DNA from: an uncultured Lachnospiraceae bacterium
GTDB lineage: Bacteria > Bacillota > Clostridia > Lachnospirales > Lachnospiraceae
Direction of reading: 5' to 3'
Assembly: GCA_910587095.1 (NCBI GenBank)
Contig: CAJUMJ010000041.1
Coordinates: 30,028 to 94,027 of the forward strand
DNA: 64,000 nucleotides
The position numbers were made by a program, and so were the translations under genes. Below, one piece after another: positions 14,259-48,350 of the stretch. How positions within the stretch are numbered: the stretch's first letter is position 1; each line of letters starts with the position of its first letter. Under the pieces are notes generated by a model, which saw only the letters and a list, made by a program, of their open reading frames with translations, ran no database searches and had not been told where the DNA came from.

Positions 14259-14355
14259 GTTGCTCATCTCCAGAACAGCCTTTGCCTATATCGCTCATAT
14301 CCACACCTCCTTCCACCTGCTTTCTATGCAGAAGCATCCTTACCGCTGCTGAAAA

Positions 14356-15711: not shown

Positions 15712-15725
15712 GAACATCCCTCCAT

Positions 15726-17559: not shown

Positions 17560-17560
17560 G

Positions 17561-27048: not shown

Positions 27049-27300
27049 AAAACCCCCGTCCCGTAAAAGGACGAGGGTAAAATTCTCGTGATACCACCTG
27101 TTACGACGTACCGCCATCATAGATGGCTATACGGTTCCCGGTAACGGCAGGACGCCGTCAGAGCCTACTGTTTCGCCACGCAAAAGTTCGGTCTGAAACT
27201 CAGAAGTGATTTTCACTGATTCTCTACTCGTACCGGTCTTGCACCATCACCGGCTCGCTGTGACTTTTAAAAATCAACTACTGTCTTCCTCAACGTCTCT
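27047..27300 (-). promoter_or_regulatory. T-box leader (tRNA-sensing riboswitch) of ileS with its terminator
   Basis: On the minus strand: AGAGA near the 5' end, a CCGGU...ACCGG distal hairpin with a GGUG loop, and the T-box sequence CAGGUGGUAUCACGAG. The terminator CCCTCGTCC-TTTTAC-GGGACGGGGG plus T6 lies at 27047-27078. The candidate specifier AUC followed by A is at 27218-27220; it was assigned by context and a UCA reading cannot be excluded by eye. Confidence 0.8.
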
Positions 27301-27320
27301 TTCTATCATAACTGCTTATC

Positions 27321-27382: not shown

Positions 27383-28864
27383 TCAAAAGCAAATAGGCTC
27401 CACATCCTCACCGAGCGGTTTCATTTCATATTCCGGCAGACTGTCCAACAATTCTTCCAGACAAAGGGTTGTGCTCCCGACCACGTCATGGGCGAGAAGA
27501 ACGACTTTATCCCGTCCGAGTGTCGTCGATACGCCGTTTTCTATCAAACGCTTCGGATCCGGGTTTTTGACCGCGTCCTCCAGACTGGCGTTCCAGTCGT
27601 AATATATGTAGCCTCTTTCGGTCATCTCCCGGATGATGGCCTTGCCCGTTTTCCTGTTAAAATCGTTTACACTGCCGCCCGGGAAGCGAAACAGGTTTGT
27701 CTCCACCCCGGTCACTTCGTACACGGTCTGTCTCGCCTTTTCAAAATCCGCCACATAACTGTCCACACTCGCATACAAGGCGTCGTAATCATGGTTATCA
27801 CAGTGAATACCGATTGTATGTCCCTCCGCCACGATCTGGCGCGCCACCTCAGGATGCTGTCTCACATTCTCTCCCACCAGAAAAAATGTCGCCTTGATAT
27901 CCCGCTCCCGCAATATTTCAAGCACCTTCCTGGTGTTTTCCACGGAAGGCCCGTCGTCAAAAGTCAGGTACATGGTCTTTGGATGGAAATAATAGGAAAT
28001 ACCCTGTACAATACCGTCTGCGATCCGCTGCTGGTAATTTGCGAGGCTGAGTTTCCTTCGCTCCGCCTTGTTGGAGAGAAATCCTGTCTCAATCAGACAG
28101 GCGGGCATGGATGTGTTTTTCGTCACATAAAAATCCGCGTCGCTCCGCAGCTCACGCTCTGCGGCTTCCGTACTTTTTAAAGTCTGCTGCCTGATCAACT
28201 GTGCAAGTCTCCTGCTGCCTGTCCGATCATCATCCGCCGTATACCACACTTCCATCCCGTTCACCCCGGCGCCTTCTTCCGTGGCGTTCTGATGAATGCT
28301 GATATAGATATCCACCCCTGACCGGTTCGCTTCCTCCACGCGCGCTTCCTTCGCCACGTAGGTATCCGCCTCTCTGGACATGATCACCTGGTATCCCTTT
28401 TCTTTTAGCTGATCCCTCACAAGCAGAGCGATGGCCAGATTCAGATCCTTTTCCCGGACGCCTCCTCTGGCGCAGCCCTCGTCCGTGCCGCCATGACCCG
28501 GATCCAGATAGACTGTCGGAATATGCGCTGCCGTCTCCCGCGCGCTCTCATTCCCGTCGGAAACCGCCGCCTGCGCCATCGCAAGAACAAGAGGCAGCGC
28601 GGTTTGTTCTTGCCGTATCAGCTCTGTTCCTTCCCCCTCCATAGGCAGATCCGCCGTCTTCTCCTCTCCCGCACTCCACAGCTTCCCCGTCAAAGCCAGG
28701 ACGCCGCCCGCCGCGGCAAGCTTTACCGACAGCATTACGGTCAGACTGACGATACACACTGCAGCGCCCAGCGCGTATATCCTTCTGTGCTGCCGCCTCT
28801 TCCTCTGCTCCCTCGTCTCATAACCACAGACATATTCCCAGGTAAATGATGTTCCTCCGTACAT
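27383..28864 (-). CDS. Membrane-anchored fusion: N-acetylmuramoyl-L-alanine amidase (Amidase_3) plus polysaccharide deacetylase (NodB)
   Basis: The amidase part shows LDPGHGGTDEG and ISIHQNA motifs. The deacetylase part shows TFDDGP, GHTIGIH and LFRFPGG motifs. There is one TM helix near the N-terminus. Start set at the ATG at 28864 (GAGAGGAG RBS). Confidence 0.8.
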   Translation of the reverse strand: MYGGTSFTWEYVCGYETREQRKRRQHRRIYALGAAVCIVSLTVMLSVKLAAAGGVLALTGKLWSAGEEKTADLPMEGEGTELIRQEQTALPLVLAMAQAAVSDGNESARETAAHIPTVYLDPGHGGTDEGCARGGVREKDLNLAIALLVRDQLKEKGYQVIMSREADTYVAKEARVEEANRSGVDIYISIHQNATEEGAGVNGMEVWYTADDDRTGSRRLAQLIRQQTLKSTEAAERELRSDADFYVTKNTSMPACLIETGFLSNKAERRKLSLANYQQRIADGIVQGISYYFHPKTMYLTFDDGPSVENTRKVLEILRERDIKATFFLVGENVRQHPEVARQIVAEGHTIGIHCDNHDYDALYASVDSYVADFEKARQTVYEVTGVETNLFRFPGGSVNDFNRKTGKAIIREMTERGYIYYDWNASLEDAVKNPDPKRLIENGVSTTLGRDKVVLLAHDVVGSTTLCLEELLDSLPEYEMKPLGEDVEPICF

Positions 28865-28903
28865 ATCCGATGCTCCTCTCTCGTATACTGTGCAAACTCG
28901 CAC

Positions 28904-28985
28904 GGAGAATGCCTGCTATCAGGCATTCTCCTATGTGAGAAAAGTCCGCTTTGCAGACTTGGTACTTCCTGTACCTCTCACATTT
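28904..28985. repeat. Element B: homologue of element A (GGAGAATGCC hairpin plus GTGAGA...TCTCAC compound hairpin) in the 5' leader of the amidase-deacetylase gene
   Basis: Hand alignment to 15775-15870. The two share GGAGAATGCC-N8-GGCATTCTCC, GTGAGA, GGAAGTAC and AAGTCT blocks in the same orientation. Confidence 0.7.
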
Positions 28986-29001
28986 AGCATATAAAAGAGG
29001 A

Positions 29002-29062
29002 GCATCATAGTTTCATCTAAGTTGCATCAAATACCCATAATATTTGCATCAAATTTGCATCA
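29002..29062. promoter_or_regulatory. Six 11-bp-phased boxes (GCATCA, TCATCT, GCATCA, CCATAA, GCATCA, GCATCA); putative response-regulator binding array
   Basis: Box starts are 29002, 29013, 29024, 29035, 29046 and 29057, an exact 11-bp period. Three boxes extend to TTGCATCA. The proximal box sits where a -35 would be relative to a TATATG/TATGCT -10-like sequence (~28985-28995, minus strand). Confidence 0.55.
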
Positions 29063-29890
29063 TCGGGACACTTTCAGGAACAGTTCATTGATCCCCTCGT
29101 AGAATCCCACTGTCACCACCGTCTGCCCGCTGCCCATCCCCGGGAAGACATATTTGCGAAAATACGGCGTCGTCTCCAGAAGCGGATTGTCCGACTCAAA
29201 AGACGAAGGTTCGCCAAGTCCCATGTATGCCGCCCAGTCCGCCGCCAACGCGTCCGCATCAATATCCTCCCAAAGAAGCGGCGTCCTCACATAAAATTCA
29301 TATATTTTTCCGTCGTCCGCGTCGATATAGGCGTCCATCAGACGGTTTGCCTTATCCGCGTTTTTCTGTGAATTGGACAGGCTCATCTTCCAGACCGCCA
29401 CATTGTTGCGCGGCTCCAGCACATCGATCGCCGAGTAGAGCATCACGTCGTAGGAGGACGCATCCACATCCCTCACCTGCAAGGGCAATATTCCCTTTTC
29501 CTTAAGCAGTTTAAGCTCCTCATTGCATGTGGCATAAATCTGCTCGTCCGTGATCTCCCTGCCGGACGGCCCCCTGCGGTTTACCACAAAAGCGTAGGAA
29601 CCTTCCGGTTCCTGATAGTCCACCTCCGCATCCGCTTCATGCGTCATTGCGCTCGTCTCGCTCTCCGGGAACGCCTGGCTGCTCAGACAGCAGGACAGAA
29701 TATAGAGTTTCTCGTTGCTGTTCATCTGATAGCGGTAGCCCTCCCCGGCGTTTTCCACGCTTTCCGTATGCGGGTTGTCCAGAATCCCCTGGTCCTTATA
29801 CTCCGCAAGCGCCTCCGGCCCCCATATGGAAATAAACATGGCGATCGCCGCCAGTAACGGGGCCGCCAGATAATATACTTTATTCTTCAT
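29060..29890 (-). CDS. Secreted or membrane-anchored hypothetical protein downstream of the histidine kinase
   Basis: 276 aa with an N-terminal signal-like helix and no recognisable motif. Confidence 0.5.
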   Translation of the reverse strand: MKNKVYYLAAPLLAAIAMFISIWGPEALAEYKDQGILDNPHTESVENAGEGYRYQMNSNEKLYILSCCLSSQAFPESETSAMTHEADAEVDYQEPEGSYAFVVNRRGPSGREITDEQIYATCNEELKLLKEKGILPLQVRDVDASSYDVMLYSAIDVLEPRNNVAVWKMSLSNSQKNADKANRLMDAYIDADDGKIYEFYVRTPLLWEDIDADALAADWAAYMGLGEPSSFESDNPLLETTPYFRKYVFPGMGSGQTVVTVGFYEGINELFLKVSR

Positions 29891-29923
29891 TTCTTGTATT
29901 CTCCACGGATATCTAAAAAAAGA

Positions 29924-31462
29924 CTATGGCAGAAGGAAGCTGAAACAGGAGCCTTCCCCTTCTTTACTCTCGATCCGTAATTCGCTGTGATGTATCTTTA
30001 AAAACTCCGCGCAAAGCGCCAGTCCGAGCCCCGACCCGTTCTTGCTTCTCGCCCTGGACTTGTCCACCATGTAAAACGCCTTGACGATCTTATTCTGTTC
30101 CGCCTCGGGTATGCCGATGCCGTAGTCTTTCACCGCGATCCTGTAGCCGCCGTCGACCACCTGCCCTGTCACCTCGACCACGCCCGTCCTGCCGCCGGAT
30201 ACCGACGCCTCGGACACACCGACCATATCAGCCCTCTTCTGGTCTGCCGCCTTGCCGCCTATTCCGTCCACACCCGCCATGCCAGAACCTGCGCTATCCA
30301 TCGCAACCTTACTGTCCGCCTTCGGTGCTGCGTTACTCTCCGAAGCCTTGCAGGCATTATCGATCAGATTGACCAGCACCGTCTTGATCAGATTCGCTTC
30401 CATCCACACCACGGCTTCCTCGCACACAAAGCGGATATCCGTGTCCTTTTTCTCCGCAAACATTTCCCGCAAGTATGCAAACAATTCGCCCACCGAAGTC
30501 TCCTGCAGATTCGCCTCATCCTGCTTTGCCACGATGATATCCAGAAGGCGAAATGACATTGCCTCTAAACGTTTTCCTTCCGTATAGATATAATTTGCAG
30601 ACATGATGCTCTTTTCCTCATCCAGCTTGTGGGAGCGCAGCATGTCCGCATATCCGATAATAGCCGTCAGAGGCGTCTTCAATTCATGGGCAAACGCGCC
30701 CATGAACTCCTCTCTCGCTTCGATCTCCTCCTCCAGCTTGCATATATTTTCTTCCAGCGCATTTGCCATCCTGTTAAAATCCCCGGTGAGCTGCCCCAGC
30801 TCATCCCGACTGATCTGTCTGGCGCGGTACGTGTAATCCCCCGCCGCCATTTCTCTGGTCGCCCTGGTCAGCAGGCGGATCGGCTTCGTCAGCAAGGATG
30901 CGATAAACAGCATGATGACCGTAGCGGTCAACAGTATGACCACCGTCACTTTCCGATACAGGGAAAAACCAAGGGCGCGTTCTGTGAACACCCCCGTCAC
31001 ATCTTTCATCGTCTCCAGGTACAGGATCCGGTTCAGCGCGTTGACAGATACGCAGGTGTGCACATAGAAACTGTCCTGCGCCCGAATCACGCGATAAGAT
31101 TTGGTATGCTGATCCGTCTGCAAAAGCAGTCCCTCATCCGCGCTAAACCCGCCGCTCGTATACAGTACGTTCTTCTCCTCGTCCGCGATCCGAAGGAGTC
31201 GCCCGCCGCCCTGTCCGCCCATTTCCAGCTTGGAGGCGATCTCCTCCACCACGCTGTCGGGCAGGACGCTGTACTTTAAGGGCACGTTCAAAGCCGCCGT
31301 CTCAAAGGCAAAGCTCAGGATGCTGCTCTCGTCGAGCGCCTGTCCCACCTCTCTGTCCAACGAAGTCTCGAACACATAGTTTACAAAATAAAAGCCGCTG
31401 AATCCAAGCGCCAGCGCCAGCACGATCATGGTAGACAGCACTAACTTGATTGAAAATTTCAT
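29924..31462 (-). CDS. Sensor histidine kinase (two TM helices, HAMP, HisKA, HATPase_c)
   Basis: H-box FAHELKTPLT, N-box LIDNACKAS and G-boxes DYGIGI / GSGLGL. It overlaps the RR gene by 4 nt. Confidence 0.85.
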   Translation of the reverse strand: MKFSIKLVLSTMIVLALALGFSGFYFVNYVFETSLDREVGQALDESSILSFAFETAALNVPLKYSVLPDSVVEEIASKLEMGGQGGGRLLRIADEEKNVLYTSGGFSADEGLLLQTDQHTKSYRVIRAQDSFYVHTCVSVNALNRILYLETMKDVTGVFTERALGFSLYRKVTVVILLTATVIMLFIASLLTKPIRLLTRATREMAAGDYTYRARQISRDELGQLTGDFNRMANALEENICKLEEEIEAREEFMGAFAHELKTPLTAIIGYADMLRSHKLDEEKSIMSANYIYTEGKRLEAMSFRLLDIIVAKQDEANLQETSVGELFAYLREMFAEKKDTDIRFVCEEAVVWMEANLIKTVLVNLIDNACKASESNAAPKADSKVAMDSAGSGMAGVDGIGGKAADQKRADMVGVSEASVSGGRTGVVEVTGQVVDGGYRIAVKDYGIGIPEAEQNKIVKAFYMVDKSRARSKNGSGLGLALCAEFLKIHHSELRIESKEGEGSCFSFLLP

Positions 31463-32118
31463 TCCTGCACCTCTAAGCGGTATCCCACCTTGTACACCGC
31501 TACCAGATTATGCTCCCACCCCAGTTTTTTTCTAAGGCGCTGTACATGCAGATCCAATGTGCGGCTGTCCGCCAGGTATTCCCCTTCCCACACCTTCTCA
31601 TACAAGGTTTCCCGAAACAGGGCGACGTTCTTATTTTTCATAAAAAGAAGCAGAAGACCGAACTCTTTATTCGTCAGTTCCACGGGACGTCCCGCTTTCG
31701 TCACCCTGCGCGCGTCCACATCTACCGTCACGTCTCCCGCCACAAGATGCTGTTCCGCCTTGTTGTAACGTCTAAGCACCGCCTCCACCCTCGCCACCAG
31801 TTCCACCACTTCGAAAGGCTTCACCAGATAGTCGTCGGCGCCCAGTTTCAGTCCCTTCACCCTGTGCTTTACCTCATGCTTGGCAGTGATAAAAATCACC
31901 GGAATCCCCAAAGGCCGTATGTACTCCATCACGTCATATCCGTCCGCCCCCGGCAGCATAATATCCAGAAGAACCAGTTCAAACTCTTCCTTCTCTATCA
32001 GGTCAATCGCCTGCAGACCATCCTGCACCGCCGTACAGTGATACCCAGCGGAAGAAAGATTTAAGTCGATCAAATCACAGATCGGTTTCTCATCGTCTAC
32101 AATCAGTATCTTAATCAT
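31459..32118 (-). CDS. OmpR/PhoB-family response regulator
   Basis: The receiver domain has DD...D...K residues and the C-terminus is a winged helix (VYKVGYRL). Confidence 0.9.
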   Translation of the reverse strand: MIKILIVDDEKPICDLIDLNLSSAGYHCTAVQDGLQAIDLIEKEEFELVLLDIMLPGADGYDVMEYIRPLGIPVIFITAKHEVKHRVKGLKLGADDYLVKPFEVVELVARVEAVLRRYNKAEQHLVAGDVTVDVDARRVTKAGRPVELTNKEFGLLLLFMKNKNVALFRETLYEKVWEGEYLADSRTLDLHVQRLRKKLGWEHNLVAVYKVGYRLEVQE

Positions 32119-33220
32119 CTGTGGACTGCCACCCCCAATAAGCCCGCGCTTTCTCTACCAGTATCTCCATCGTGTCCTCGTCGCTGCACCGATAGGTATC
32201 CCTGATTTCCGTATCCGGCTCAAATCCTCCGGTTCTCTGATAGTAGATCCGGTAATCGCTCTCAATGAGAAGCGCCCCGTCCGCCCCCTCATAGCTGTAC
32301 CTCGCAAGAACCACGATATCCTTGAGTCCGTCCCCGTCGATGTCCCGGCAAGTGACACCCTTGAGCGCATAGAGGTTGTCATACGCTCCCATCGGCTGCA
32401 AAACCGATATAATATCTCCCTGCTCGTTCACGAGATAAATCATAAAAATGTCATAATCCGCGATCCGGTATATTCCCGGCGTCACCTGCAGTTTGCCGAG
32501 CTTCCCGAATGTCCGCAGATAACACTGCTCGGGAATGACCCGGAAACGGTTTCGCAAAAGCTCCTGCAAGGTGGTCGCCGTGTACAGAAATTCCGTGGAA
32601 TCCCCGTCCCTTACAAACGCTGCGATGGCTTCCGCGCTCTTATTCATGCCAAAGCGGTTGATCTTTTCCGAAATGCGATAATCCCTGTAAAAGCCGCTCC
32701 CCTCCCGATCCCGGAAAAGCACGTCCCCGACCTTGTAAGTCCCGCCGGCATAATCGTCGCTCTCATTGGCACAGGAAGTAATGAGAACGATATCCGTCCT
32801 GCCATCCCGGTTCAGATCCTGAAAGGAAACCGCCGCAATGGACTGTACCGGCTGCCTCATCTGCCCCCTGGCACAGTAATTAGTCTCCAACTGTTCCGTC
32901 CGGTAGAGTATACGCCCGTCCGCATCCACTATAAAAAGCGCCAGCCGGTTATACAGCTCGTCAAAAGCCGGCACCATCAAATCGCCGTCCACCGCATCCG
33001 GCTCCAAAGAAAAAACCTGGTCTTCCACCACCCTGAAGCCGCCGTCCGCTATCCCGTCACGACTCTCGATGGACATGAAACGGTTAACGTATGTCTCGTA
33101 CTCCTCCAGCACGGTATTCCCGGCCGCCCCCGCCGGAGATGCCTGTACAGTCTCAATACAAAGCAGACACCAGACAAACGCCGCCAGGACAGACACGCTC
33201 ATGTATCCACATCTTTTCAT
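32111..33220 (-). CDS. Secreted protein with FG-GAP/VCBS-like DxDxDG loops
   Basis: Loops DLNRDGRTDIVL and DIDGDGLKDIVV, with a signal peptide. Start set at MKRCGYM (AGGAG RBS). It overlaps the RR start by 8 nt. Confidence 0.5.
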   Translation of the reverse strand: MKRCGYMSVSVLAAFVWCLLCIETVQASPAGAAGNTVLEEYETYVNRFMSIESRDGIADGGFRVVEDQVFSLEPDAVDGDLMVPAFDELYNRLALFIVDADGRILYRTEQLETNYCARGQMRQPVQSIAAVSFQDLNRDGRTDIVLITSCANESDDYAGGTYKVGDVLFRDREGSGFYRDYRISEKINRFGMNKSAEAIAAFVRDGDSTEFLYTATTLQELLRNRFRVIPEQCYLRTFGKLGKLQVTPGIYRIADYDIFMIYLVNEQGDIISVLQPMGAYDNLYALKGVTCRDIDGDGLKDIVVLARYSYEGADGALLIESDYRIYYQRTGGFEPDTEIRDTYRCSDEDTMEILVEKARAYWGWQSTDD

Positions 33221-33268
33221 CTGTCGTACTCCTACACTGCATGCTCCCGTGTCAACGCCTTTCACGGA

Positions 33269-35164
33269 CTACTCTTTTTCAAACACCGCTTTAATGTAAA
33301 GCCCGTCCTCCGGGATTTCCAGTTCCAGCCATGTCTCATCGGTTTTCTCGATTCCCGCTCCCCGGTCTACTTCCCATCCCGCAAAGCGATACCCATCCTT
33401 GGCTAAAACCGACACCGTAATCGGATAATCCGTGAAATATTCACCGCTCCATTTTCCGTCTTCTCCGAAAGGAACCGCCCCGCTGTTTAAAACCACGCTT
33501 CCCGCCTCGTTCCCAGTCGTCTCGATCTCCACGGTCGAAAGCGTTCCCGACAGACCGAAGTGCTCCTTCACATACGGCGCGATACATGATTTGCGCCGTT
33601 TTAAAAATTCCCGGATGTTTGTCACTTCCTTGTACAGACGCTGTCCGTCCTCCCCGTAAAATCTGGCAAGATTTTTGTTCAGCGGTTCGCCCATCAGCTC
33701 GAGATAGGAGTCGATAAGCGGCTCCGTGTTTTCCTCCGAAAAAGTGATGTTGGCAAGATCCATCAGCGTGAGTGTAAAGTCCTTTTTAAACTCCTCGCTG
33801 CGGCACAGATTCGTAAAGCCTTCGCTGTGTTCCATCACCCATTTTATCGTGTCGGATTCCACCCTGTCATAAGAAAGGGAACTGGTATTGACGTCAAACA
33901 GCATCCATCTCCACCTGCCGTCCTCAAATCCGCCATCCTCAGACGGCTTCCTTGCCCGCCAAAACGCCTCGTTCGTCCCGGGCCAGTCGACGCAGCTCCC
34001 GATATATATTCCCGTGGCATAATAATCGAGATAACTTCGCACATCGATCAGATAATCAAGCTCTCTGTAATTGGCCGGATCCGTAAAGTCTGTGTCCTTC
34101 AGATGATTCGTTAAAAGAACATACAACGACCAGTCGTCTTCCCTTTCTTTTGTCAACCTGCTGTGCTTGATTGTGATAATATTGTCGTCATCCACACCAT
34201 AACGGTGTTCAATGTACGCATCCGTGTATCTCTCCGTGAGCCAGTAAACGCCCCAGTATTCCCCGTCCAGGAACATGACGCACGGTTTGTAATTCATAGT
34301 GGCAAACGCCTTGTCCTTCGTCAGTGTGGACACGAACATATCGCGGAATTTGGCCACCGCATCCTGCCCGCCCGCCGTCAAAGTAATCGTATCCGGCAAA
34401 TATCCCGTCCCGAACAAATCCACATAAAACCGGCTGGCCGGACCATATTCCTCCCTCGCGTAAAAATTCATACTTTTTGGAAGTCCGCTGCGGCTTGCGC
34501 CTCCCTGAACGCGGATTCCGCAGGATTGTTCCAGAACAGACTTCCGATCCGCGTCAAATAGCTGAATATCCGCGGGCCGCTCCCACGCAAAGCCATGCCG
34601 GCTGAAATTTGCGTTCTCTTCAAGTTCTTCATCATAGCCGTTGCCTAAAACGTAGATCCCCGTGTCCGGGGCAAACAGGTTTTCCGGGGAAGTGACGACG
34701 GACATGATCTGCATATTCCCGTAACCGGTCTTTTTGTCATATCCCACGAAATAGCTCGCTGTTTTTGCCTCGCCGACCTTTCCGTCCGCGTCCAGGTATG
34801 CCGCTCTAACAATGGTGCACTTGTCGACCGGATGATCGGGCAACCGGTAACCCATCATATCCCACATAGAGTTGACAGCAGTGTCAGTTCTCATGGAATG
34901 GACATTCGGATGCGAAGTGGCGTCCTCTATCAAGATGGGTTCCGTGTACAAAAGCGCATTTTCGTCCGGCCGGGAACCGTCCAGCGTATAATAGATTTTT
35001 GCCCCGAACGGCGCGTGCAGTTCCAGCAAAAAAGGCTCCTCGTAGAATCCCGATTCCCTGGAAAAAGTCAGCTCCCTGTAATCGTACCCGTCAAGCCACA
35101 AAAGGAGGACAAGCAAACCGCATATGGACAACAGGCAGGCTAAAGCGCTCCTTCGGCTCATCAT
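33269..35164 (-). CDS. CotH kinase-family protein, paralogue 2, secreted, with flanking Ig-like or carbohydrate-associated domains
   Basis: The core pattern MNYKPCVMFLDGEYWGVYWLTERY is typical of the CotH family. It has an N-terminal signal anchor. Its start overlaps the stop of the upstream DUF4956 gene (ATGA). Confidence 0.75.
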   Translation of the reverse strand: MMSRRSALACLLSICGLLVLLLWLDGYDYRELTFSRESGFYEEPFLLELHAPFGAKIYYTLDGSRPDENALLYTEPILIEDATSHPNVHSMRTDTAVNSMWDMMGYRLPDHPVDKCTIVRAAYLDADGKVGEAKTASYFVGYDKKTGYGNMQIMSVVTSPENLFAPDTGIYVLGNGYDEELEENANFSRHGFAWERPADIQLFDADRKSVLEQSCGIRVQGGASRSGLPKSMNFYAREEYGPASRFYVDLFGTGYLPDTITLTAGGQDAVAKFRDMFVSTLTKDKAFATMNYKPCVMFLDGEYWGVYWLTERYTDAYIEHRYGVDDDNIITIKHSRLTKEREDDWSLYVLLTNHLKDTDFTDPANYRELDYLIDVRSYLDYYATGIYIGSCVDWPGTNEAFWRARKPSEDGGFEDGRWRWMLFDVNTSSLSYDRVESDTIKWVMEHSEGFTNLCRSEEFKKDFTLTLMDLANITFSEENTEPLIDSYLELMGEPLNKNLARFYGEDGQRLYKEVTNIREFLKRRKSCIAPYVKEHFGLSGTLSTVEIETTGNEAGSVVLNSGAVPFGEDGKWSGEYFTDYPITVSVLAKDGYRFAGWEVDRGAGIEKTDETWLELEIPEDGLYIKAVFEKE

Positions 35165-35835
35165 CCTACCGTTTCTCCCGACTCGGCCACCCAGTTTACA
35201 GACTGTATGCCGGGCACGTTCATCAACTCATCTATCATGTCCGGGTTCAGCTCTCCCTTCGTCCTGATCTCATAAATCATCTCTTCATGGGCGGCGTCCC
35301 TGTTTCCCGTCCGTATCCGGCAGCTCACGACAAAAGGTTTCAAAACCTCCTCAAACCGTTTCCTGTCGACAGACGTCCCTTCGCCCGTCACAATCAGGAG
35401 ATATTTATTCCAAATGCCGGGTATCCTGCTGGACAGAATCAACACAGCCGCAATAAACAGCACAGTGGTAACACTCAGCCGGTAGTTGCGCGAGCTCACA
35501 CACAGCCCCTCCGCCATAGCCCAAAATATAAACATGGTGTCGCGGCTGTCCTTGACGGCAGTTCTGAAACGGACGATGGAAAGCGCGCCGACCATCCCGA
35601 GAGAGACTGCGATATTGCTGCTGATCATCATCATGACAATCACGGTAACCAAAAGCATGACCACCAGCGACCAGTTAAATTTTCTGTTGTACGCGATCTT
35701 TTCCGATGTGAGCCAGTAGGTCAGGTAAATGACCATCCCGACCGCCAGACCGCACGACATGATGACAAGCGTTTCCCTGATCCCATACTGTGTGCCGCTT
35801 GTGTAAAAATAATTCAGTACATCTTCTTTTGACAT
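35161..35835 (-). CDS. DUF4956-family integral membrane protein, paralogue 2
   Basis: Four TM helices, the signature LGMVGALSIVRFRTAVKDSRD and a ~85-aa soluble tail. Confidence 0.75.
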   Translation of the reverse strand: MSKEDVLNYFYTSGTQYGIRETLVIMSCGLAVGMVIYLTYWLTSEKIAYNRKFNWSLVVMLLVTVIVMMMISSNIAVSLGMVGALSIVRFRTAVKDSRDTMFIFWAMAEGLCVSSRNYRLSVTTVLFIAAVLILSSRIPGIWNKYLLIVTGEGTSVDRKRFEEVLKPFVVSCRIRTGNRDAAHEEMIYEIRTKGELNPDMIDELMNVPGIQSVNWVAESGETVG

Positions 35836-35840
35836 AACTA

Positions 35841-35983
35841 CTCCGTTCCTGAGCGTTTACGAGACGAGGCGACGTAAATCTCAAATTTACGTCTGCCATC
35901 AAACAAATTTGTGACGCCCGGCACAAATTTGAGTACGAAAAAACAGCGCATCAGCGTGATTTTTCGTACATTTCTCCGTTCCT
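35841..35983. mobile_element. MITE-like insertion: three perfect 9-10-bp hairpins flanked by the 10-bp direct repeat CTCCGTTCCT
   Basis: The direct repeats lie at 35841-35850 and 35974-35983. The hairpins lie at 35871-35893, 35904-35931 and 35933-35969. The paralogous intergenic gap in triad 1 is only 42 bp. Confidence 0.55.
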
Positions 35984-35990
35984 CAATACT

Positions 35991-36698
35991 TCAATAATTG
36001 AAATCGTAATATACAAAACGTCCGGCGCAATATTTACTGTAGGTTCCCTGAGTCAGGTGAAACCGCGCAAACAGGGCGGACAAAAAGCCCACCAGCTTTC
36101 CGCTGTATTTGACCTCCAAAACCACACTCTCCGGCATGACCGGCGTATAGTGCACGGCGGACGAAAACAGATCCATATTGGATTCCGTCGATCTGACATT
36201 CATATCCAAAGTGACACGCGTGTCATACATGGGATACCTGTACGCCAGCCGGTCATACGCAACCTGCACGGCGGGCCGATACTGCCCCTGTACCATAATG
36301 CCGTAGGCTTTGAGGCTCGTCGCGGACGTGTCAAAATAGTTTTTGAGCACACGGTACTCTCCGCGTGAAAGCGCTGCAGCGTCAGGCTGCGAGATGAGAA
36401 ACCCCTGCTTTTTCTGCCGGTCGTCGGTTTTCTGTTTGATTTCAAGCTTGCATAAGGAGGCGTTTCCGTTGTAAATCCGGAGACGTACCTTTTTCCTGTC
36501 CATCACGCCTGAAAGCTTCTGCGCAAAATCAATATTGTTTGGCGAATCAAAATAGAGACTGCTCACCAGGTAGGCTCCCCCGGCGCAATAGCCGTCCTTC
36601 TCAAGAAGCCTGTCCAGCTCTTCTCTGATCAGGAGCGCTTTCCCGAGCGGTATGACATATTTGATTTCTTTTCTGTATGAATAAAGCTCTTTGTCCAT
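35991..36698 (-). CDS. VTC-domain (triphosphate-tunnel, polyphosphate-polymerase-like) protein, paralogue 2
   Basis: 235 aa and soluble. It has an N-terminal RKEIKY strand (ExK) and alternating basic/acidic beta-strand motifs (KVRLRIY, KLEIKQK, VLEVKY) as in CYTH/TTM tunnels. Confidence 0.7.
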   Translation of the reverse strand: MDKELYSYRKEIKYVIPLGKALLIREELDRLLEKDGYCAGGAYLVSSLYFDSPNNIDFAQKLSGVMDRKKVRLRIYNGNASLCKLEIKQKTDDRQKKQGFLISQPDAAALSRGEYRVLKNYFDTSATSLKAYGIMVQGQYRPAVQVAYDRLAYRYPMYDTRVTLDMNVRSTESNMDLFSSAVHYTPVMPESVVLEVKYSGKLVGFLSALFARFHLTQGTYSKYCAGRFVYYDFNY

Positions 36699-36746
36699 CG
36701 CGCGTCCCCGGCTGTCCTCTAAGCATTCCCTTTATAAATCCCAACA

Positions 36747-36775
36747 ATTATAACATCGGCCTTTCCATTTTTCAA
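36747..36775 (-). promoter_or_regulatory. Strong sigma-A-type promoter in front of triad 2
   Basis: On the minus strand: TTGAAA, a 17-nt spacer, then TATAAT, about 50 nt upstream of the VTC-2 start. Confidence 0.6.
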
Positions 36776-36781
36776 CCGGCT

Positions 36782-37894
36782 TCACTCCCGCTCCTCCGGC
36801 CAAGCCCCCTCTGTAAGCGCCTCTGCCATTTTCTCCTCTTTCCATTCCAGGCTCTCTCTGTCAATCAGCTTTCGCTCCGCTCCCTCGTCCCACCAAAAAC
36901 ACGGGACGCCGATCCCGTTTGCCCGCTCCAGATAGTATTGCAGCCATTCCAGCCGTTCTTCCCCATTTTCCTTGTCCTCGCTGCCAAACTCCGTAATGAC
37001 CACCGGAATACGCCGTTTCACGTAGTTTTCCTGAAGCCATGCAAACAGCGTATCTATTTTCTCCGTGTCGCCTTTGTTGTCCGCGTCAAAAGTGCGGCTC
37101 CCGCCATCCCCCTCGCAAAAGGAATAGGGAATATACGCGTGAACCGACACGATAACATGTCCGTCTATATATTTGAGACTTTCCAGCGCCGCTGTCTCAT
37201 ACCGGTTCGCATACGGACAGATCAAAAGATATCTCTCCTCATTGGCTCCGCCCGTCCCGCGCACGCTGTCCACAAACACCTGGTTCAGACGATTCGTCAT
37301 ATCCCGCAGCTCCTTTGTCCCCTCCGTCCACTCGTATTCCGAATCCCGCAGTCTCGGCTCGTTCATCCCCTCGAACAAAAGACGCTCGTCGTATTCGGAA
37401 AACCGTTTCGCAATCTGCGTCCACACCTTGTCTAGCTTCCCGCCGATCTCCGCCTCCTTGTCCGTCTCCAGGTTCAGCCACATCTCATGGTGCGTATCCA
37501 GAATCACATACAGCTCCTCATGCAGAGCCATATCGACAACCTCCTGCACCCGATCCATCCATTCCGGCTCTATATTTCCCTCCGCATCCATATGCTCGTC
37601 CCACGTCACCGGTATCCGCACGCTCCGAAACCCGGCCTTTCTGATTTCGGAAAAGAGCTCTCCCGTGATCGGCGGATTGTTCCAGTAAGTTTCGTAATAC
37701 TCCGCCTGGGCGTTATCCCTGTGTTCCCGCACACCGGTGGCATCCAGACTGTTGCCGATATTTATGCCGTTCCCAAGATCCGCCGCAAACTGCATTCCCT
37801 CTTTCCCCCGATAATCCGCAAAGCAGAGCGTGCCGGCCAGTACGGCAAGTATAAGCCCGGCGGCCGCTCCCCCTATCCATATCCCTTTTTTCAC
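36782..37894 (-). CDS. Glycoside hydrolase family 5 endoglucanase (cellulase-like), membrane-anchored
   Basis: Both catalytic motifs are intact (GMNEP and VITEFG). It has an N-terminal TM helix. Its start overlaps the upstream stop by 4 nt. Confidence 0.85.
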   Translation of the reverse strand: MKKGIWIGGAAAGLILAVLAGTLCFADYRGKEGMQFAADLGNGINIGNSLDATGVREHRDNAQAEYYETYWNNPPITGELFSEIRKAGFRSVRIPVTWDEHMDAEGNIEPEWMDRVQEVVDMALHEELYVILDTHHEMWLNLETDKEAEIGGKLDKVWTQIAKRFSEYDERLLFEGMNEPRLRDSEYEWTEGTKELRDMTNRLNQVFVDSVRGTGGANEERYLLICPYANRYETAALESLKYIDGHVIVSVHAYIPYSFCEGDGGSRTFDADNKGDTEKIDTLFAWLQENYVKRRIPVVITEFGSEDKENGEERLEWLQYYLERANGIGVPCFWWDEGAERKLIDRESLEWKEEKMAEALTEGAWPEERE

Positions 37895-38796
37895 AAAAGC
37901 CCTCCGTCGCCACGCCCGGCTAAAAGCTCTGGCCGCCCTTGCCTTTTGGAAGCGCCTTCCTCATGCTCCTTCAGCAAGTTAAGCCGTTTTCCGTCGCTCT
38001 CAAACACCACATCTCCCTCACAGGAAAAAAGAAGTCTGCTCCCGCACCTTGCGCTGCTCTCCACAATCTCCTCATCCGCCGAGTCGGATGTCACAACCGC
38101 ATAGGCGGGGCGAAGCGTCTCAAACAGCTCCTCGGAGGCTTTGTTTGCCCTCCCGTGATGGGCGACCTTGTATAGTGCCACCTCCGGCAGGTTCATTGTC
38201 AAAAGCTCCTCGCTGCGTTTGCGCATCGCGTCCGCGCCAAAAAACATTTTCACTTTCCCATGCTCCGCCAGCACTGCCAGAGAATAGTTGTTCCCCTCTT
38301 TATAATGCTTTTCCTGCGGCGGATATACAAGCAGATTCACATATCCCGTATGGATTTTCCACACATGGTTCGGATAGTATATCTGGATTTTTTTGTCCCT
38401 GCAACAGGTTTCAACAGCCTTCCATTCTTCATTTTCCCCCGCATAACAGGAATAAATCACTTTCTTTACCGGAAATTCCCTCAGAACAGGAAGCGCCCCT
38501 CCTATATGGTCTTTGTCAGGATGCGTCAGAATAAGCGCGTCCAGCTCCTCAATCCCGGCTTCATTGAGCTCCCGCATCACATGTTCGATGTCCTGCGCCT
38601 CTCCCGTATCAATCATCACCGCGTTTTTGTCCTGGCTTAAAATAATACAGTCCGCGTCTTCCTTTGTCTGCAAAATGCGGACTTGCAAATCCGCGCTGTC
38701 TCCCCCGGGATCAAATGTGCCGCCTGCTGCCAGATAAGCAAGCCCCAATATGCCAATCAACGCGATCCACGCACAAACCACCGCTGCTTTTCTCAT
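37891..38796 (-). CDS. MBL-fold metallo-hydrolase (ComEC C-terminal-domain-like), membrane-anchored
   Basis: ILTHPDKDHIGG motif (HxHxDH) and an N-terminal TM helix. Confidence 0.75.
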   Translation of the reverse strand: MRKAAVVCAWIALIGILGLAYLAAGGTFDPGGDSADLQVRILQTKEDADCIILSQDKNAVMIDTGEAQDIEHVMRELNEAGIEELDALILTHPDKDHIGGALPVLREFPVKKVIYSCYAGENEEWKAVETCCRDKKIQIYYPNHVWKIHTGYVNLLVYPPQEKHYKEGNNYSLAVLAEHGKVKMFFGADAMRKRSEELLTMNLPEVALYKVAHHGRANKASEELFETLRPAYAVVTSDSADEEIVESSARCGSRLLFSCEGDVVFESDGKRLNLLKEHEEGASKRQGRPELLAGRGDGGLL

Positions 38797-40023
38797 TCAA
38801 TCCCCCTGATTTTCAAAATACGCAAACGCCCTGTCTGCGACATTATAAGGATACACTTCTATAAAGAGATAATCATACTCCCCCTCCCTTATCATCTCCT
38901 CATAGTCAAGCCCGTTACGGTCGGACCTCGCCCACACCATATCAATCTGACTGCACATCGGCGCCAAAAAGCAGGCGACCGGAGACATATAGGAATCTCT
39001 CAGACACAGCACCCTTGGCCCCTCGGGATTGTCCTCGTTCACGATGCGATCCTGATTCACGACGCCCTCCAGATAAATAGAACTTCCCGGATTCGAATAC
39101 GCGTCCGCCCTGCTGCTCTCCAGATCGACAAAGACGTCATAAAAGCTGCCCGCTTTTCTCTCGCCGCTCTCCAGGTCATACCATTTCATGTGCGTCTCAA
39201 ATTTGGGGTACAGCACCGTATAATCCTCTTTTCCGGCATACGCCAGCCCCGTCTCTCTGCCGATCGCCCCAATCGTCCCCTGCCTGTACGTATCCGCCGT
39301 ATAATTTGCCCTGTCAAGGTAGTAGTCTTCCGGATCCCAGTCATCGCCGAAATCCTTCCGTATCTTATCCGCTAACGCCCCGGCGGCGATAAACGCAGCC
39401 TCGGACGTCCAGGAATGATCCGTGCGGTAAAACATCTCCTCATGCGTCATGCCGGATTCCGTCAAGGCCGTCCGCAAGTCAAGCGTAGCGACCTGATTCT
39501 GCTGCATGTACAAAAGAAGTTCATCCTGCATGGCGTTTGGATCGTTCACGGGAAGTTCCCTGTCTTCTCCCATAACGCCGTACAGCACTTTGGAAGGCGG
39601 CATGATAAATATGGTTTTTGCCCCCTGCCTGCCGGCACACCGCGCCGCCCTGCCGGTCCTTACGGCGTATTCCATCAGACTGTCGTTTTCGTTCGCCATA
39701 ACGGCGCCGTAATAGAGCATATCGTTTCCGCCTCTCACAAACGAAAAATTGCGATATTCCCGCTTGTCCATAAGCCTCTGCGCTACGCCGTACACTTCCA
39801 CGGACAAATCGCCCGCCGCACTCTCTTCCAGTTCCTCCAAAAGCTCCTTTCGCAATTCGCCCCATAGCTCTTTTGCCTGTTCATAGCCGGAAGCCTCCGT
39901 AAGTCCCTTCCCGAAATCCGCAAAGGCTTTCTGTCCGTGATAAATGCCATATCCGAAAAAGGCAAAAAGCCCTGCCAGAAAACAGAACAGAAATACATAT
40001 TTTTTCCCGAAAAACGCTTTCAT
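38797..40023 (-). CDS. DHHW-family (AlgX/AlgJ-like) extracytoplasmic protein, probable O-acyl transfer partner of the MBOAT
   Basis: RTDHSW motif (a DHHW variant) and an N-terminal TM helix. Start set at MKAFFGK (GGGAGG RBS). Confidence 0.7.
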   Translation of the reverse strand: MKAFFGKKYVFLFCFLAGLFAFFGYGIYHGQKAFADFGKGLTEASGYEQAKELWGELRKELLEELEESAAGDLSVEVYGVAQRLMDKREYRNFSFVRGGNDMLYYGAVMANENDSLMEYAVRTGRAARCAGRQGAKTIFIMPPSKVLYGVMGEDRELPVNDPNAMQDELLLYMQQNQVATLDLRTALTESGMTHEEMFYRTDHSWTSEAAFIAAGALADKIRKDFGDDWDPEDYYLDRANYTADTYRQGTIGAIGRETGLAYAGKEDYTVLYPKFETHMKWYDLESGERKAGSFYDVFVDLESSRADAYSNPGSSIYLEGVVNQDRIVNEDNPEGPRVLCLRDSYMSPVACFLAPMCSQIDMVWARSDRNGLDYEEMIREGEYDYLFIEVYPYNVADRAFAYFENQGD

Positions 40024-40051
40024 CGTATCCTCCCGGCCAAAGCTCACATCT

Positions 40052-41443
40052 TTAATACAGCGAATACAGGAACGGTTTCCCGACTCCCTGCATCAGATAG
40101 CCAAGCGACAACAGTAACACGGCCGCCATCACAACCGGATAGCAAAGTGTAACGGCCACCCTGCCCACACGCCCGTTTTTTCCGTTCACAAGCCAGTTGT
40201 TCGCTTTCTTCGCAACAGGCGTGCACAAAAGGCATCCTATAGCCAGGTACGGCCAATATTCTAAAAGCAGTATTCCTGTCATGCCGTTCCAAATACTGTT
40301 ATAGTTCGCGCCGAACATATTCATATAGAACTGGCCGGCCTGGTACAAATCCTGTGCCCTGAAAACAACCCACCCCACAACGACAACCGACAAAGTATAT
40401 ATTCTCATAAGCGCAGTGTGCGGATTATTCTCCCCGTATCCGAGAAAAAGCTCCGCAAGAATAAACAGAAACTGCCACAGACACCAGAGAAAAAACTTAC
40501 CTCCCACACCGTACCACATGCCTATGACAAGCCACATCAAAAACAAGTTCCGCACGGTCTTGTCCATGTTGTCCTTCTTGCCGCCGAGCGGTTCAAACAC
40601 GTACCGCTGAAACCAGTTCATCAGCGAGATATAAAACCTTTCCCAAAAATCGCTGACCGAAACAGCCCTATAAGGATAGTTTACATTTTCCTCCATGATA
40701 ATGCCGAACATAAGACTCAGCCCGATCGCCATATCCGCGTACCCCGAAATGTCAAAATATATTTGCAGCGTAAACGCGAACAGGCCAAGCCACGCCATGA
40801 CCACAGGGACCGTCACGTTCTCCCTCCCCATGGCGGAATAATTGAAAACGATGTCCGCAAGCTGCGCGAGCGTATCCGCCAGAATTACCTTCTTTGAAAG
40901 CCCCGTCACAAACCGGCAGCACCCGACCGCACTGCGGCGCAAAGTCAGCTTCTGTCCTCCCATCTGCGCCGTAAATTCCTCAAACCCCACCGCAGGGCCG
41001 GCAAGAAGCTTTGGAAAATAGAAGAGATACAAACCGAGCGTAAAAGGATTTTTCGCCGTCGTTGTCCGCCCGGCGTACACATCCGACAAGTAGGAAATAC
41101 CCGAAAGCATCACAAAGGAAAGCCCCACGGGTAAAAATTCCCCCTGCTCATACATATACTTAAAAAACAGCACGGGAAGCAGGTTACCGACGACTCCGAT
41201 AATCAGAATAACATTTACCCTCCCCCCTGTTTTCCGGCTTTTAAACAACATTCCGAATATCCAGTCCCATAGCAGCAACACCAAAACGACAACAAAACCT
41301 GTCGGCGCGCCAAGCGCGTAGAAAAAAAGGCTGGTCAGAAAAAGCCATATTCTCTGCATGGTTTTGCTGAAAAAGAACAGATAATATCCCAGAAGCGCAG
41401 CAGGGAAAAAGAATACCAAAAAGTCCATACTTATAAACGACAT
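40052..41443 (-). CDS. MBOAT-family membrane O-acyltransferase (AlgI/DltB-like)
   Basis: About 10 TM helices and a typical MBOAT layout. Start set at MSFISM. Confidence 0.85.
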   Translation of the reverse strand: MSFISMDFLVFFFPAALLGYYLFFFSKTMQRIWLFLTSLFFYALGAPTGFVVVLVLLLWDWIFGMLFKSRKTGGRVNVILIIGVVGNLLPVLFFKYMYEQGEFLPVGLSFVMLSGISYLSDVYAGRTTTAKNPFTLGLYLFYFPKLLAGPAVGFEEFTAQMGGQKLTLRRSAVGCCRFVTGLSKKVILADTLAQLADIVFNYSAMGRENVTVPVVMAWLGLFAFTLQIYFDISGYADMAIGLSLMFGIIMEENVNYPYRAVSVSDFWERFYISLMNWFQRYVFEPLGGKKDNMDKTVRNLFLMWLVIGMWYGVGGKFFLWCLWQFLFILAELFLGYGENNPHTALMRIYTLSVVVVGWVVFRAQDLYQAGQFYMNMFGANYNSIWNGMTGILLLEYWPYLAIGCLLCTPVAKKANNWLVNGKNGRVGRVAVTLCYPVVMAAVLLLSLGYLMQGVGKPFLYSLY

Positions 41444-41453
41444 ACCTTCCCCC

Positions 41454-43043: not shown

Positions 43044-43058
43044 CACAGCCGCCCCTTT

Positions 43059-43736
43059 TTATCTGTTAATCTCATCGTTTTGACACACCAGATTGACCGC
43101 GGTTACCAGCTTGGATTTATAGAAGTAATCGGGAATATTCCCCTGCTTTTTTGCCTTGGTTATCATTTTTTCGGAAAGTTCATAAATATACTCCGCGTTT
43201 TCCTGCGTGGAATTGTCTACACGCAGTCTCGCCTTACCGGCAAACTTGCTCTCCACAAGCCTTTCCACCTCCGCGGCATTTTCCTGGCCGCATCGGATAA
43301 TCAGCAAATACCTCTCGTTACTCTTCACAGCGCCGAACAGCACGAGCACAAGAAATATGACAGCCGTCCCGACGCCCGCCATCACATACTCCGTGACGCC
43401 GCAGCAGATTCCAACCGCGATTCCCCAAAAAATATAAGCCGTGTCCCTCGGATCCTTGATCGCGGTTCTGAAACGCACAATGGAAAGCGCCCCGACCATA
43501 CCAAGAGAGAGCGCGATATTATTTCCGATCACATTCATAACAAGAGTAGTCACAAGCGTGAGCATTAATAGCGAAACATTGAAGCGCGCGCTGTAAGCGG
43601 CCCCCGAATGTGAAATCCGGTACGACAGATAGATCACTGCCCCCAGCACCACCGCCACCAGGAAATTCAGTACCATATCCTCCAGTGTGAGCGCCCCTGT
43701 ATTTGCCGCAAAGTAATTCATCAACTGTTCTTTCAT
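43059..43736 (-). CDS. DUF4956-family integral membrane protein, paralogue 1
   Basis: LGMVGALSIVRFRTAIKDPRD signature, four TM helices and a soluble C-terminal tail. Confidence 0.75.
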   Translation of the reverse strand: MKEQLMNYFAANTGALTLEDMVLNFLVAVVLGAVIYLSYRISHSGAAYSARFNVSLLMLTLVTTLVMNVIGNNIALSLGMVGALSIVRFRTAIKDPRDTAYIFWGIAVGICCGVTEYVMAGVGTAVIFLVLVLFGAVKSNERYLLIIRCGQENAAEVERLVESKFAGKARLRVDNSTQENAEYIYELSEKMITKAKKQGNIPDYFYKSKLVTAVNLVCQNDEINR

Positions 43737-43778
43737 GATCTTATCCCCTCTCTTCTCCGAGCCGTTATCTGCCGTCCT

Positions 43779-44483: not shown

Positions 44484-44514
44484 TTCCGCCTCCCTGCCCG
44501 GGCAAGCCGCTTCG

Positions 44515-46872: not shown

Positions 46873-46895
46873 AACCGCTCCTCCTCCCGGCTTTC

Positions 46896-48251: not shown

Positions 48252-48350
48252 TTGCCCCTGCCATTTGGGCACATGCAACACAAACTTGTCCAATGGAGTC
48301 CCCCTTTGCCAGACCCGCACCTGTGCGATGTAGATATCTATTTTGTTAAA

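Follow-up and report, generated by a model that had tools for sequence, protein, structure and literature searches.

The presence of two VTC/DUF4956/CotH gene trios close together in a 64,000-nt stretch of DNA from an uncultured Lachnospiraceae bacterium (contig CAJUMJ010000041.1; the whole stretch is referred to here as the window), the second of them followed by genes for an FG-GAP-like protein and a two-component system, raises the question of what forms a system with what. A sequence-only reading of the locus had proposed that the second trio (triad 2), the FG-GAP-like protein and an envelope-sensing two-component system constitute one dedicated, co-regulated system. The alternative preferred here, to which a probability of about 0.6 is given as a whole, is that this interval is the junction of two independent modules, a single dedicated system being disfavoured. 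Triad 2 would be a self-promoted cassette (module A, 33269–36775), an old paralogue subfamily of the trio in the adjoining acetyl-cellulose-type operon, that moves as a unit between surface-glycan loci. The two-component system would belong to a Lachnospiraceae cell-wall module (module B, 27383–33220) whose position downstream of module A is restricted to one genus-level clade.

Every gene from 48320 to 27383 is on the minus strand, as seen from the open reading frames (ORFs) and their translations, and this strand applies to all window features described below. The region from 27.4 to 48.3 kb comprises three juxtaposed modules: the acetyl-cellulose-type operon containing triad 1 (36782–48320), triad 2, and the five-gene cell-wall module. 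The same arrangement is present in an identical public contig of NCBI assembly GCA_948929745.1. Domains were assigned to window proteins with Pfam and NCBIfam.

The independence of the two modules is supported directly by their gene content and conservation elsewhere. Module B comprises genes for a VCBS/FG-GAP-like extracytoplasmic protein (32111–33220, 369 aa), an OmpR/PhoB-family response regulator (31459–32118, 219 aa), a sensor histidine kinase (29924–31462, 512 aa), a secreted or anchored protein of 276 aa (29060–29890), and a membrane-anchored fusion of an Amidase_3 (CwlD-like) domain with a polysaccharide deacetylase (PdaA/PdaB-like) domain (27383–28864). In a metagenome-assembled genome (MAG) labelled Ruminococcus and in another Lachnospiraceae contig (loci L007 and L008), this five-gene block has its own upstream region of approximately 250 nt, and neither a trio nor cellulose genes lie closer than 10 kb. 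Conversely, module B is missing after triad-2 orthologues at 44–71% identity, in L004–L006, L013–L022, L019 (61%) and L089 (71%). In L089, triad 2 is followed by a small ORF and then by ileS. Since module B occurs without the triad and triad 2 without module B, the description of the two-component system as dedicated to triad 2 does not hold.

The shared strand, the gap of 48 nt and the lack of a terminator between the modules would be expected of a single dedicated system, and the adjacency recurs in L002/L003, L009, L010, L012 and L048 as well as in the window. Against this, and in addition to the separate occurrences described above, a GH5 gene lies between the cassette and the two-component module in three species. 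The cassette promoter is near-consensus, with no upstream activator site common to the window and L002. The modules have also evolved at unequal rates, the regulator being 98–99% identical in the genus-level clade and CotH-2 61–63%. The FG-GAP homologues, 60–84% identical across Lachnospiraceae, are far better conserved than the triad (80–84% where CotH-2 is 63%). At every locus seen, the FG-GAP and regulator genes overlap; the former is translationally coupled to the regulator and so tied to the two-component system, not to CotH-2. Taken with the evidence on both sides, one dedicated system is quite unlikely, and the junction of two modules is the better reading.

Co-transcription in this organism is a separate matter. 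A terminator scan from 36775 to 27383 gave no convincing candidate; those found were short-stemmed, all but one intragenic, and their total count was at chance level. As only 48 nt, with no terminator, separate the CotH-2 and FG-GAP genes, transcription from the cassette promoter plausibly reads through into module B here. Alignment of the sequences upstream of the FG-GAP gene across five loci revealed no convincing conserved promoter.

The portability of triad 2 is seen in its promoter and in its surroundings. The sigma-A-type promoter (36747–36775) begins 6 nt past the GH5 stop codon and consists of TTGAAA (36775–36770), a 17-nt spacer and TATAAT (36752–36747), with TG at −15/−14. It can be read directly, as had been claimed, and is the top-scoring site in the 20 kb scanned, matching 11 of 12 positions with the TG extended −10 in addition. 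The scan returned 23 promoter-like sites where 17.7 were expected, which is near chance; the match alone is therefore weak evidence, and conservation is what counts. In 15 of 18 orthologous loci the VTC gene is preceded by the TTGAAA −35 element, 17-nt spacing and TG-n-TAYAAT, and the motif is kept in all nine genus-level sequences. These features are invariant in five loci whose CotH proteins are 47–63% identical to CotH-2 and in which the genes upstream of the promoter are unrelated (GH5, synthase, XRE-type regulator, or glycosyltransferases). The triad-1-type operons of Blautia and Desulfitobacterium lack the motif. This pattern of conservation indicates that the promoter is real, belongs to the triad-2 cassette and travels with it. 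In L002 (8560–8580), L009, L012 and L048, a short hairpin with a U-run (AACAGCAGCGCTGTTTTTT) is found in the leader between the conserved promoter and the VTC-2 orthologue. This is a possible attenuator, which the window and its 90% relative lack.

The surroundings of the cassette vary widely. At 47–51% CotH-2 identity (L004, L005) it stands alone beside a divergent XRE regulator, in L006 it is inside a glycosyltransferase/flippase/pyruvyl-transferase (Wzx/Wzy-type glycan) cluster, and in L002, L009 and L012 it is in cellulose clusters. In the L002-type context (CotH-2 63%), both triads occupy one rearranged cellulose cluster, in the order triad 1, MBOAT, AlgX, synthase, triad 2, GH5, FG-GAP, regulator, kinase, 276-aa protein, amidase/deacetylase, ileS. 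A census was made of 79 species-representative loci, with counts taken from the 54 in which the flanks on either side extend for 6 kb or more. Both VTC and DUF4956 genes lie within 6 kb of the CotH gene in 38 of these, and only one of the two in three. Among strict orthologues (n=8) the trio is complete in all eight; FG-GAP/two-component genes are present in two and the synthase in one. The linkage in 38/54 loci and 8/8 strict orthologues bears out the suggestion that the three proteins act as one unit.

In distant relatives the order is often CotH-VTC-DUF4956, with several CotH genes. One Lachnospiraceae MAG (L029) carries three VTC/DUF4956/CotH sets side by side in 20 kb, and a Gastranaerophilales MAG (L064, 10001–17942) carries four CotH genes around one VTC-DUF4956 pair. 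Since distant relatives stack CotH genes and L029 has three trios, a second trio is not unusual in the family. The presence of the trio in the Gastranaerophilales MAG means that it reaches beyond Firmicutes.

When the region from 27383 to 48320 of the window is compared with L002, identity is 99% for the regulator, 92% for the 276-aa protein, 84% for the kinase, 76% for the synthase, 71% for VTC-2, 63% for CotH-2, 49% for VTC-1, 41% for MBOAT, 39% for CotH-1 and 33% for the AlgX-like protein. The gradient of divergence between these two related species is steep, and the triad-1/acetylation part of the locus has the character of a surface-polysaccharide segment that is hypervariable or exchanged.

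Are the two trios of the window products of an old duplication, and are both functional? Triad 1 comprises VTC-1 (43779–44483), DUF4956-1 (43059–43736) and CotH-1 (41454–43046), and triad 2 comprises VTC-2 (35991–36698), DUF4956-2 (35161–35835) and CotH-2 (33269–35164). Pairwise identities are 39% for the VTC proteins and 36% overall for the DUF4956 proteins, which share a nearly identical SLGMVGALSIVRFRTA-KD core; in a neighbour-joining tree, the VTC-1 and VTC-2 groups form separate clades. The sequence-only reading had taken the copies for old paralogues, for which pairwise alignments and a phylogeny were the proposed check. This stands, and is reinforced by the greater identity of VTC-1 to the Desulfitobacterium operon VTC (49%) than to VTC-2 (39%); with the Blautia operon VTC included, the range is 49–52%. 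The CotH pair proved much more diverged than had been implied, at 24% identity over 195 residues (E = 6e-4). On these comparisons, 'two long-standing subfamilies' describes the copies better than 'a local duplication'.

That triad 2 might instead be a redundant, decaying duplicate of triad 1 is suggested by an insertion of 124 nt with three hairpins that splits VTC-2 from DUF4956-2 in this strain only, and by relative L006, which appears to have a broken DUF4956 gene. Yet all ORFs of both triads are intact. The Vtc4-type tunnel residues, the CotH catalytic Asp/Asn and the candidate metal-binding Asp are all invariant. Orthologues of the same architecture occur in many species, the promoter is conserved, and the insertion duplicates the ribosome-binding site, so that DUF4956-2 keeps one. 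Decay is therefore extremely improbable, and triad 2 is best regarded as a second intact trio.

The hairpin insert (35841–35982) consists of 124 nt (35850–35973) flanked by 9-bp direct repeats GGAACGGAG at 35974–35982 and 35841–35849, the second of which restores the DUF4956-2 ribosome-binding site. It contains three perfect AT-rich hairpins (fold −55.6 kcal/mol, z = −3.35). It is absent from the 90%-identical relative and from all others, in which the VTC/DUF4956 spacer is 15–31 nt. There are no further copies in the window, and the only other copies are at the same locus in public contigs. A metagenome scan with the central palindrome gave 23 matches, of which one (L099) fits the element, and this is again the same locus. 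With no copies beyond its own locus, the insert is rejected as a demonstrated multicopy mobile repeat family. It could serve in RNA processing or stability, or be what a small insertion left behind.

VTC-2, a cytoplasmic triphosphate-tunnel (VTC/TTM) enzyme of 235 aa, is a candidate polyphosphate polymerase. Both VTC proteins (234–235 aa) consist of a single domain with no hydrophobic segment, and match Pfam VTC (PF09359) with 113 bits (VTC-2) and 132 bits (VTC-1) against a cutoff of 23. Pfam and hydropathy show neither an SPX domain nor a fused VTC-type membrane channel in either. A search of the PDB with the single VTC-2 sequence returned nothing useful, and the family profile was needed to match the catalytic domain of yeast Vtc4 (3G3Q; E = 8.5e-12). 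An alignment of 42 bacterial VTC sequences, both window copies included, has 28 invariant columns, among them VTC-2 residues K13, R72, R74, K88, K97, R150, R161, E195, S221 and K222. These align, in order, with Vtc4 K200, R264, R266, K281, K294, R361, R373, E426, S457 and K458, whose roles in the tunnel we take to be those given by Hothorn et al. 2009. VTC-2 thus looks like an active enzyme, judged by its retention of the full Vtc4 tunnel residue set.

The membrane protein encoded beside VTC-2, DUF4956-2 (224 aa), is assigned to the DUF4956 family (42 bits), with a weak MgtC match, and has three to four predicted transmembrane helices and a cytoplasmic C-terminal domain. A motif located in the membrane, S78-LG-VGALSIVR89-R91-K95-D99, is invariant in 36 sequences. 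The ATGA overlap with CotH-2 that had been noted is exact (35164–35161).

CotH-2 (631 aa) is predicted to be an N-terminally anchored extracytoplasmic CotH-family kinase. Pfam CotH (PF08757) is matched with 117.4 bits, and with 174.2 bits by CotH-1, against a cutoff of 23.8. CotH-2 also carries a chitobiase-C/Fn3-associated beta module at 38–121 (Fn3_assoc/CHB_HEX_C_1) and an InlB-B-repeat-like beta module at 574–630, the latter at 22.4 bits, just under the Pfam cutoff of 23.6. It has more than 2000 homologues, the top 120 of which share its architecture. PDB sequence searches with CotH-1 and CotH-2 singly and with a CotH-2 profile returned nothing useful and did not find Bacillus cereus CotH. 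The fold is seen directly in the structure model (pLDDT 80.5, pTM 0.79), for which the top Foldseek matches are the B. cereus CotH kinase structures 5JDA and 5JD9 (E = 2e-11, probability 1.00, target TM-score 0.73–0.75).

The catalytic Asp/Asn pair is likewise clear, with a candidate for the metal-binding Asp: D393, N398 and D424 of CotH-2 are invariant among homologues. D393/N398 align with D228/N233 of what we take to be the Bacillus subtilis CotH reference sequence, checked for its length (362) and for Asp at 228 and 251. In CotH-1 the equivalent of the former motif is SYDSGN, and that of the metal-binding Asp, D251, is in WDYD. Inactive D228 and D251 mutants of B. subtilis CotH have been reported, both residues being catalytically essential (PMC7821199).

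By hydropathy, CotH-1 has hydrophobic helices at both ends and CotH-2 at the N terminus only, which together with the extra terminal modules matches the earlier description of CotH-2. The N terminus of CotH-2 is a very hydrophobic helix of 18–19 residues (Kyte–Doolittle 2.56; residues 4–24 are helical in the model). As basic residues precede and acidic residues follow this helix, the bulk of the protein is placed outside the cell. There is no Ala-x-Ala-type cleavage motif after the helix. The proposal that one copy is tethered and the other released is thus unsupported, given the strong membrane helix and the lack of such a site. The C-terminal helix of CotH-1 ends in Arg-Arg and is kept in a CotH-1 orthologue. 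From these features, anchoring of CotH-2 by one end and of CotH-1 by both is more likely. Lipoprotein anchoring of CotH-2 was also considered and is unsupported, the invariant Cys15 having Ile at −1, by eye a poor lipobox fit.

As an uncharacterised gene neighbourhood, the trio is already on record: Whitfield et al. 2020 (PMC7112168) described CotH, polyphosphate-polymerase and DUF4956 genes contiguous with Gram-positive pel operons. In Streptococcus intermedius the trio is SIR_1594/1593/1592, and the DUF4956 homologue is described as having four transmembrane segments and an ACT domain; deletion of the CotH or the DUF4956 gene alters the amount of Pel and lowers aggregation (PMC12345266). The pel trio resembles those of the window in that the same three families are encoded side by side at a synthase-dependent exopolysaccharide locus, with a secreted or anchored kinase bearing an extra beta-sandwich module, a cytoplasmic VTC protein and a DUF4956 protein with about four transmembrane helices. 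The window differs in that its trios do not adjoin pelDEADAFG and a DUF4832 hydrolase gene, no Pel or DUF4832 domains occurring among the proteins scanned (15.9–57.2 kb). Triad 1 is in a cellulose-synthase (GT2+PilZ) operon with GH5, and triad 2 is free-standing, with its own conserved promoter and the order VTC-DUF4956-CotH. The streptococcal authors, whose search scope is unstated, failed to find three-gene synteny outside the Pel locus (PMC12345266).

A role in exopolysaccharide production may be proposed by analogy, since triad 1 is inside a cellulose-type operon, the trio lies beside pel operons and the streptococcal deletions alter Pel. From the pel data, topology and conserved residues we infer, as the most economical model, that VTC-2 would use ATP to form polyphosphate on the cytoplasmic side of the membrane. 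DUF4956-2 would pass or couple this polymer across the membrane, its invariant Arg/Lys-rich membrane motif being suited to a polyanion. CotH-2 would then phosphorylate an extracytoplasmic target, either a matrix or wall polysaccharide or a matrix protein, and this phosphorylation may tune the amount or adhesiveness of exopolysaccharide.

Triphosphate-tunnel enzymes of the CYTH/TTM superfamily have several activities, and this counts in favour of the main alternative, in which the trio is a signalling device. In that case the VTC protein would have a triphosphatase, nucleotide-processing or sensor function, a metabolite would be bound by the cytoplasmic DUF4956 domain, and CotH would phosphorylate proteins, thereby regulating polysaccharide synthesis. 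Regulation of Pel synthesis by protein phosphorylation was indeed proposed by Whitfield et al. (PMC7112168). The streptococcal DUF4956 domain of ACT type is ligand binding, deletion of DUF4956 raises Pel and that of CotH lowers it (PMC12345266), and B. subtilis CotH is a protein Ser kinase (PMC7821199). On the other hand, the complete Vtc4 polymerase tunnel residue set is invariant, the CotH domain is predicted to be outside, where ATP is normally absent and the cytoplasmic domains of the synthase are out of reach, and CotH-2 bears beta modules associated with glycan enzymes. A signalling device is thus unlikely, and the polyphosphate model is retained.

In its strongest form, this model would make the trio a bacterial counterpart of the eukaryotic VTC machine, with polyphosphate threaded through a DUF4956 oligomer to CotH as phosphoryl donor, cellulose-type or other surface glycans phosphorylated, and the two paralogous trios of this locus serving different targets or polymers. 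Polyphosphate is suggested as donor because outward-facing kinases have no ATP outside the cell. The proposal is tentative and, in this full form, doubtful. The eukaryotic complex (Vtc4 tunnel domain, Vtc1/3/4 channel) has a homologous catalytic domain, with the polymerase tunnel residues kept, and likewise pairs a cytoplasmic polymerase with a membrane component. The window proteins differ in lacking SPX and a fused VTC-type membrane domain, and the predicted destination is the cell surface, whereas that of the eukaryotic system is the vacuole.

Comparison with the Bacillus CotH spore-coat kinase (5JD9/5JDA) is similarly mixed. The fold and the catalytic Asp/Asn motif match CotH-2, but identity is only 13%. 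The Bacillus enzyme acts in the mother-cell cytoplasm, whereas the CotH proteins of the window are predicted to be membrane-anchored and outward-facing, with glycan-associated modules, and no CotB/CotG-type substrates are evident.

Several points weigh against the reading adopted here. At least six species of one clade share the adjacency of triad 2 and module B, among them L010, which has no cellulose genes upstream, and a lineage-specific functional link is possible. Neither VTC nor DUF4956 is within 6 kb of the CotH-2-like gene in 13 of the 54 census loci, and the CotH kinase can therefore work without them. The profile alignment is ambiguous as to the CotH-2 counterpart of D251, which may be D415 or D424, both of them invariant; D424 follows strand 418–422 in the structure model. 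Between DUF4956 and the membrane domain of eukaryotic VTC proteins there is no relationship. In S. intermedius, aggregation was not affected by deletion of the VTC gene under the conditions that were tested (PMC12345266).

The value of the finding lies in the biochemistry of the trio rather than in the proposed two-component wiring, and the regulatory story is corrected: the two-component system next to triad 2 goes with a module for a peptidoglycan amidase/deacetylase. The trio recurs beside biofilm polysaccharide genes of gut and oral Firmicutes. It is not specific to Pel, being an integral part of a cellulose-type operon whose conservation extends from Lachnospiraceae to Desulfitobacterium, and a second subfamily enters different glycan loci as a self-promoted three-gene cassette. 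Both copies appear to retain every residue needed for a polyphosphate polymerase and for the predicted outward-facing kinase. The source of phosphate for an extracellular kinase is a question directly testable with three small proteins. If the model held in its strongest form, exopolysaccharide modification would gain a new class, and energy-rich phosphate a new path by which it exits the cell.

The acetyl-cellulose-type operon encodes, in addition to triad 1, a 474-aa membrane/acidic-repeat protein with no family match (46896–48320) and, by Pfam, a GT2+PilZ synthase (44515–46872), an MBOAT protein (40052–41467), an AlgX-like protein (38797–40047), a metallo-beta-lactamase-fold protein (37891–38796) and GH5 (36782–37894). 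The synthase scores 398 bits with NCBIfam CelA, below the equivalog cutoff of 699, and the polymer is thus described as cellulose-like rather than proven cellulose. Homologues of CotH-1 at 45–55% identity are present in Blautia schinkii, Clostridium vincentii, Anaerophilus and Desulfitobacterium dehalogenans. An eight-gene operon (VTC-DUF4956-CotH-MBOAT-AlgX-like-metallo-beta-lactamase-fold-GT2/PilZ-GH5) is found in B. schinkii (L114, 8566–18830) and D. dehalogenans (L115, 8557–18639), corresponding to 36782–46872 of the window, whose proteins are 29–67% identical to their counterparts. The Blautia operon is preceded by GGDEF/EAL genes.

The clostridial ccsZABHI locus resembles this operon in that genes for a GT2+PilZ synthase, GH5, MBOAT and an AlgX/DHHW-like acetyltransferase adjoin. 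The window, Blautia and Desulfitobacterium operons add VTC, DUF4956, CotH and the metallo-beta-lactamase-fold protein, and the ccs description mentions neither a kinase nor a polyphosphate enzyme (Scott et al. 2020, PMC7710045). A CBM11-like CcsB was not identified, no CcsB sequence having been compared. CcsB is a CBM11-like ectodomain between two terminal transmembrane helices; the 474-aa protein differs from this, whereas CotH-1, with one helix at each end of an outward-facing domain, has the topology given for CcsB in the ccs paper (PMC7710045). Comparison of the operons suggests that the trio is a core component of a Firmicute cellulose-type operon, one whose description in the ccs literature does not include it. 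The cellulose-type setting and the self-promoted cassette form go beyond the pel-trio and ccs descriptions in the papers cited here. The 474-aa protein has five N-terminal and one C-terminal transmembrane helices, with three tandem acidic Pro/Glu-rich repeats of approximately 33 residues between them (PMSELEPEAGLEILPEPEPE...), and may be a synthase partner.

In module B, Pfam domains agree with the earlier identification of the regulator (REC and Trans_reg_C) and the kinase (HAMP-HisKA-HATPase_c), whose two transmembrane helices enclose an outside loop of approximately 150 aa. The H-box FAHELKTPL and the receiver motif LLDIMLPG are present in the translations. The FG-GAP/regulator overlap of 8 nt (the ORFs ending at 32111 and starting at 32118) and the regulator/kinase overlap of 4 nt (31459 and 31462) are exact, as first described. 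No NCBIfam equivalog cutoff is reached by either protein, and hence the pair is not WalRK, PhoPR or similar; by these profiles it is an ordinary OmpR-type pair without equivalog assignment. Residues ~385–440 of the kinase include a low-complexity Ala/Gly/Ser-rich insertion of approximately 50 residues inside the ATPase domain, and the spread in length among kinase orthologues (464–512 aa) may be due to this region.

The FG-GAP-like gene probably starts at the ATG at 33220, the start annotated in the identical public contig, giving the 48-nt gap after CotH-2. The DxDxDG loops earlier noted in this protein are present and the gene start is corrected, but a propeller is not supported. Two Ca-type loops, DLNRDGRTD and DIDGDGLKD, have Asp residues invariant in 25 homologues. 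The FG-GAP_3 and FG-GAP Pfam matches barely pass (28.7 vs 26.9 and 23.3 vs 22.1). The model (pLDDT 71.9) has two small beta domains, with a Foldseek TM-score of ~0.2 to integrin propeller blades. With only two repeat-like loops and weak blade matches, propeller identity is rejected; 'FG-GAP-like loops' is a fair description.

The gene for the 276-aa protein, which has no Pfam or NCBIfam match, comes after the kinase gene in L002, L007, L008, L010, L012 and L048, and the position of the amidase/deacetylase gene is conserved in L007 and L008. The latter is the conserved last gene of the module. In Bacillus, N-acetylmuramoyl-L-alanine amidase activity of the CwlD kind and deacetylase activity of the PdaA/PdaB kind together make the muramic delta-lactam of the spore cortex. 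In L009, a type I restriction-modification system (13379–20781) is inserted between the kinase and 276-aa genes.

A PADLOC scan for anti-phage defence gave no matches for either triad, the FG-GAP protein or the 276-aa protein. Rfam, applied to the cluster at gathering thresholds, found a single RNA, a T-box leader upstream of ileS (27064–27302; 97.9 bits), which follows the amidase/deacetylase gene of module B. Apart from the terminator of this leader, the 20 kb scanned yielded no convincing intrinsic terminator.

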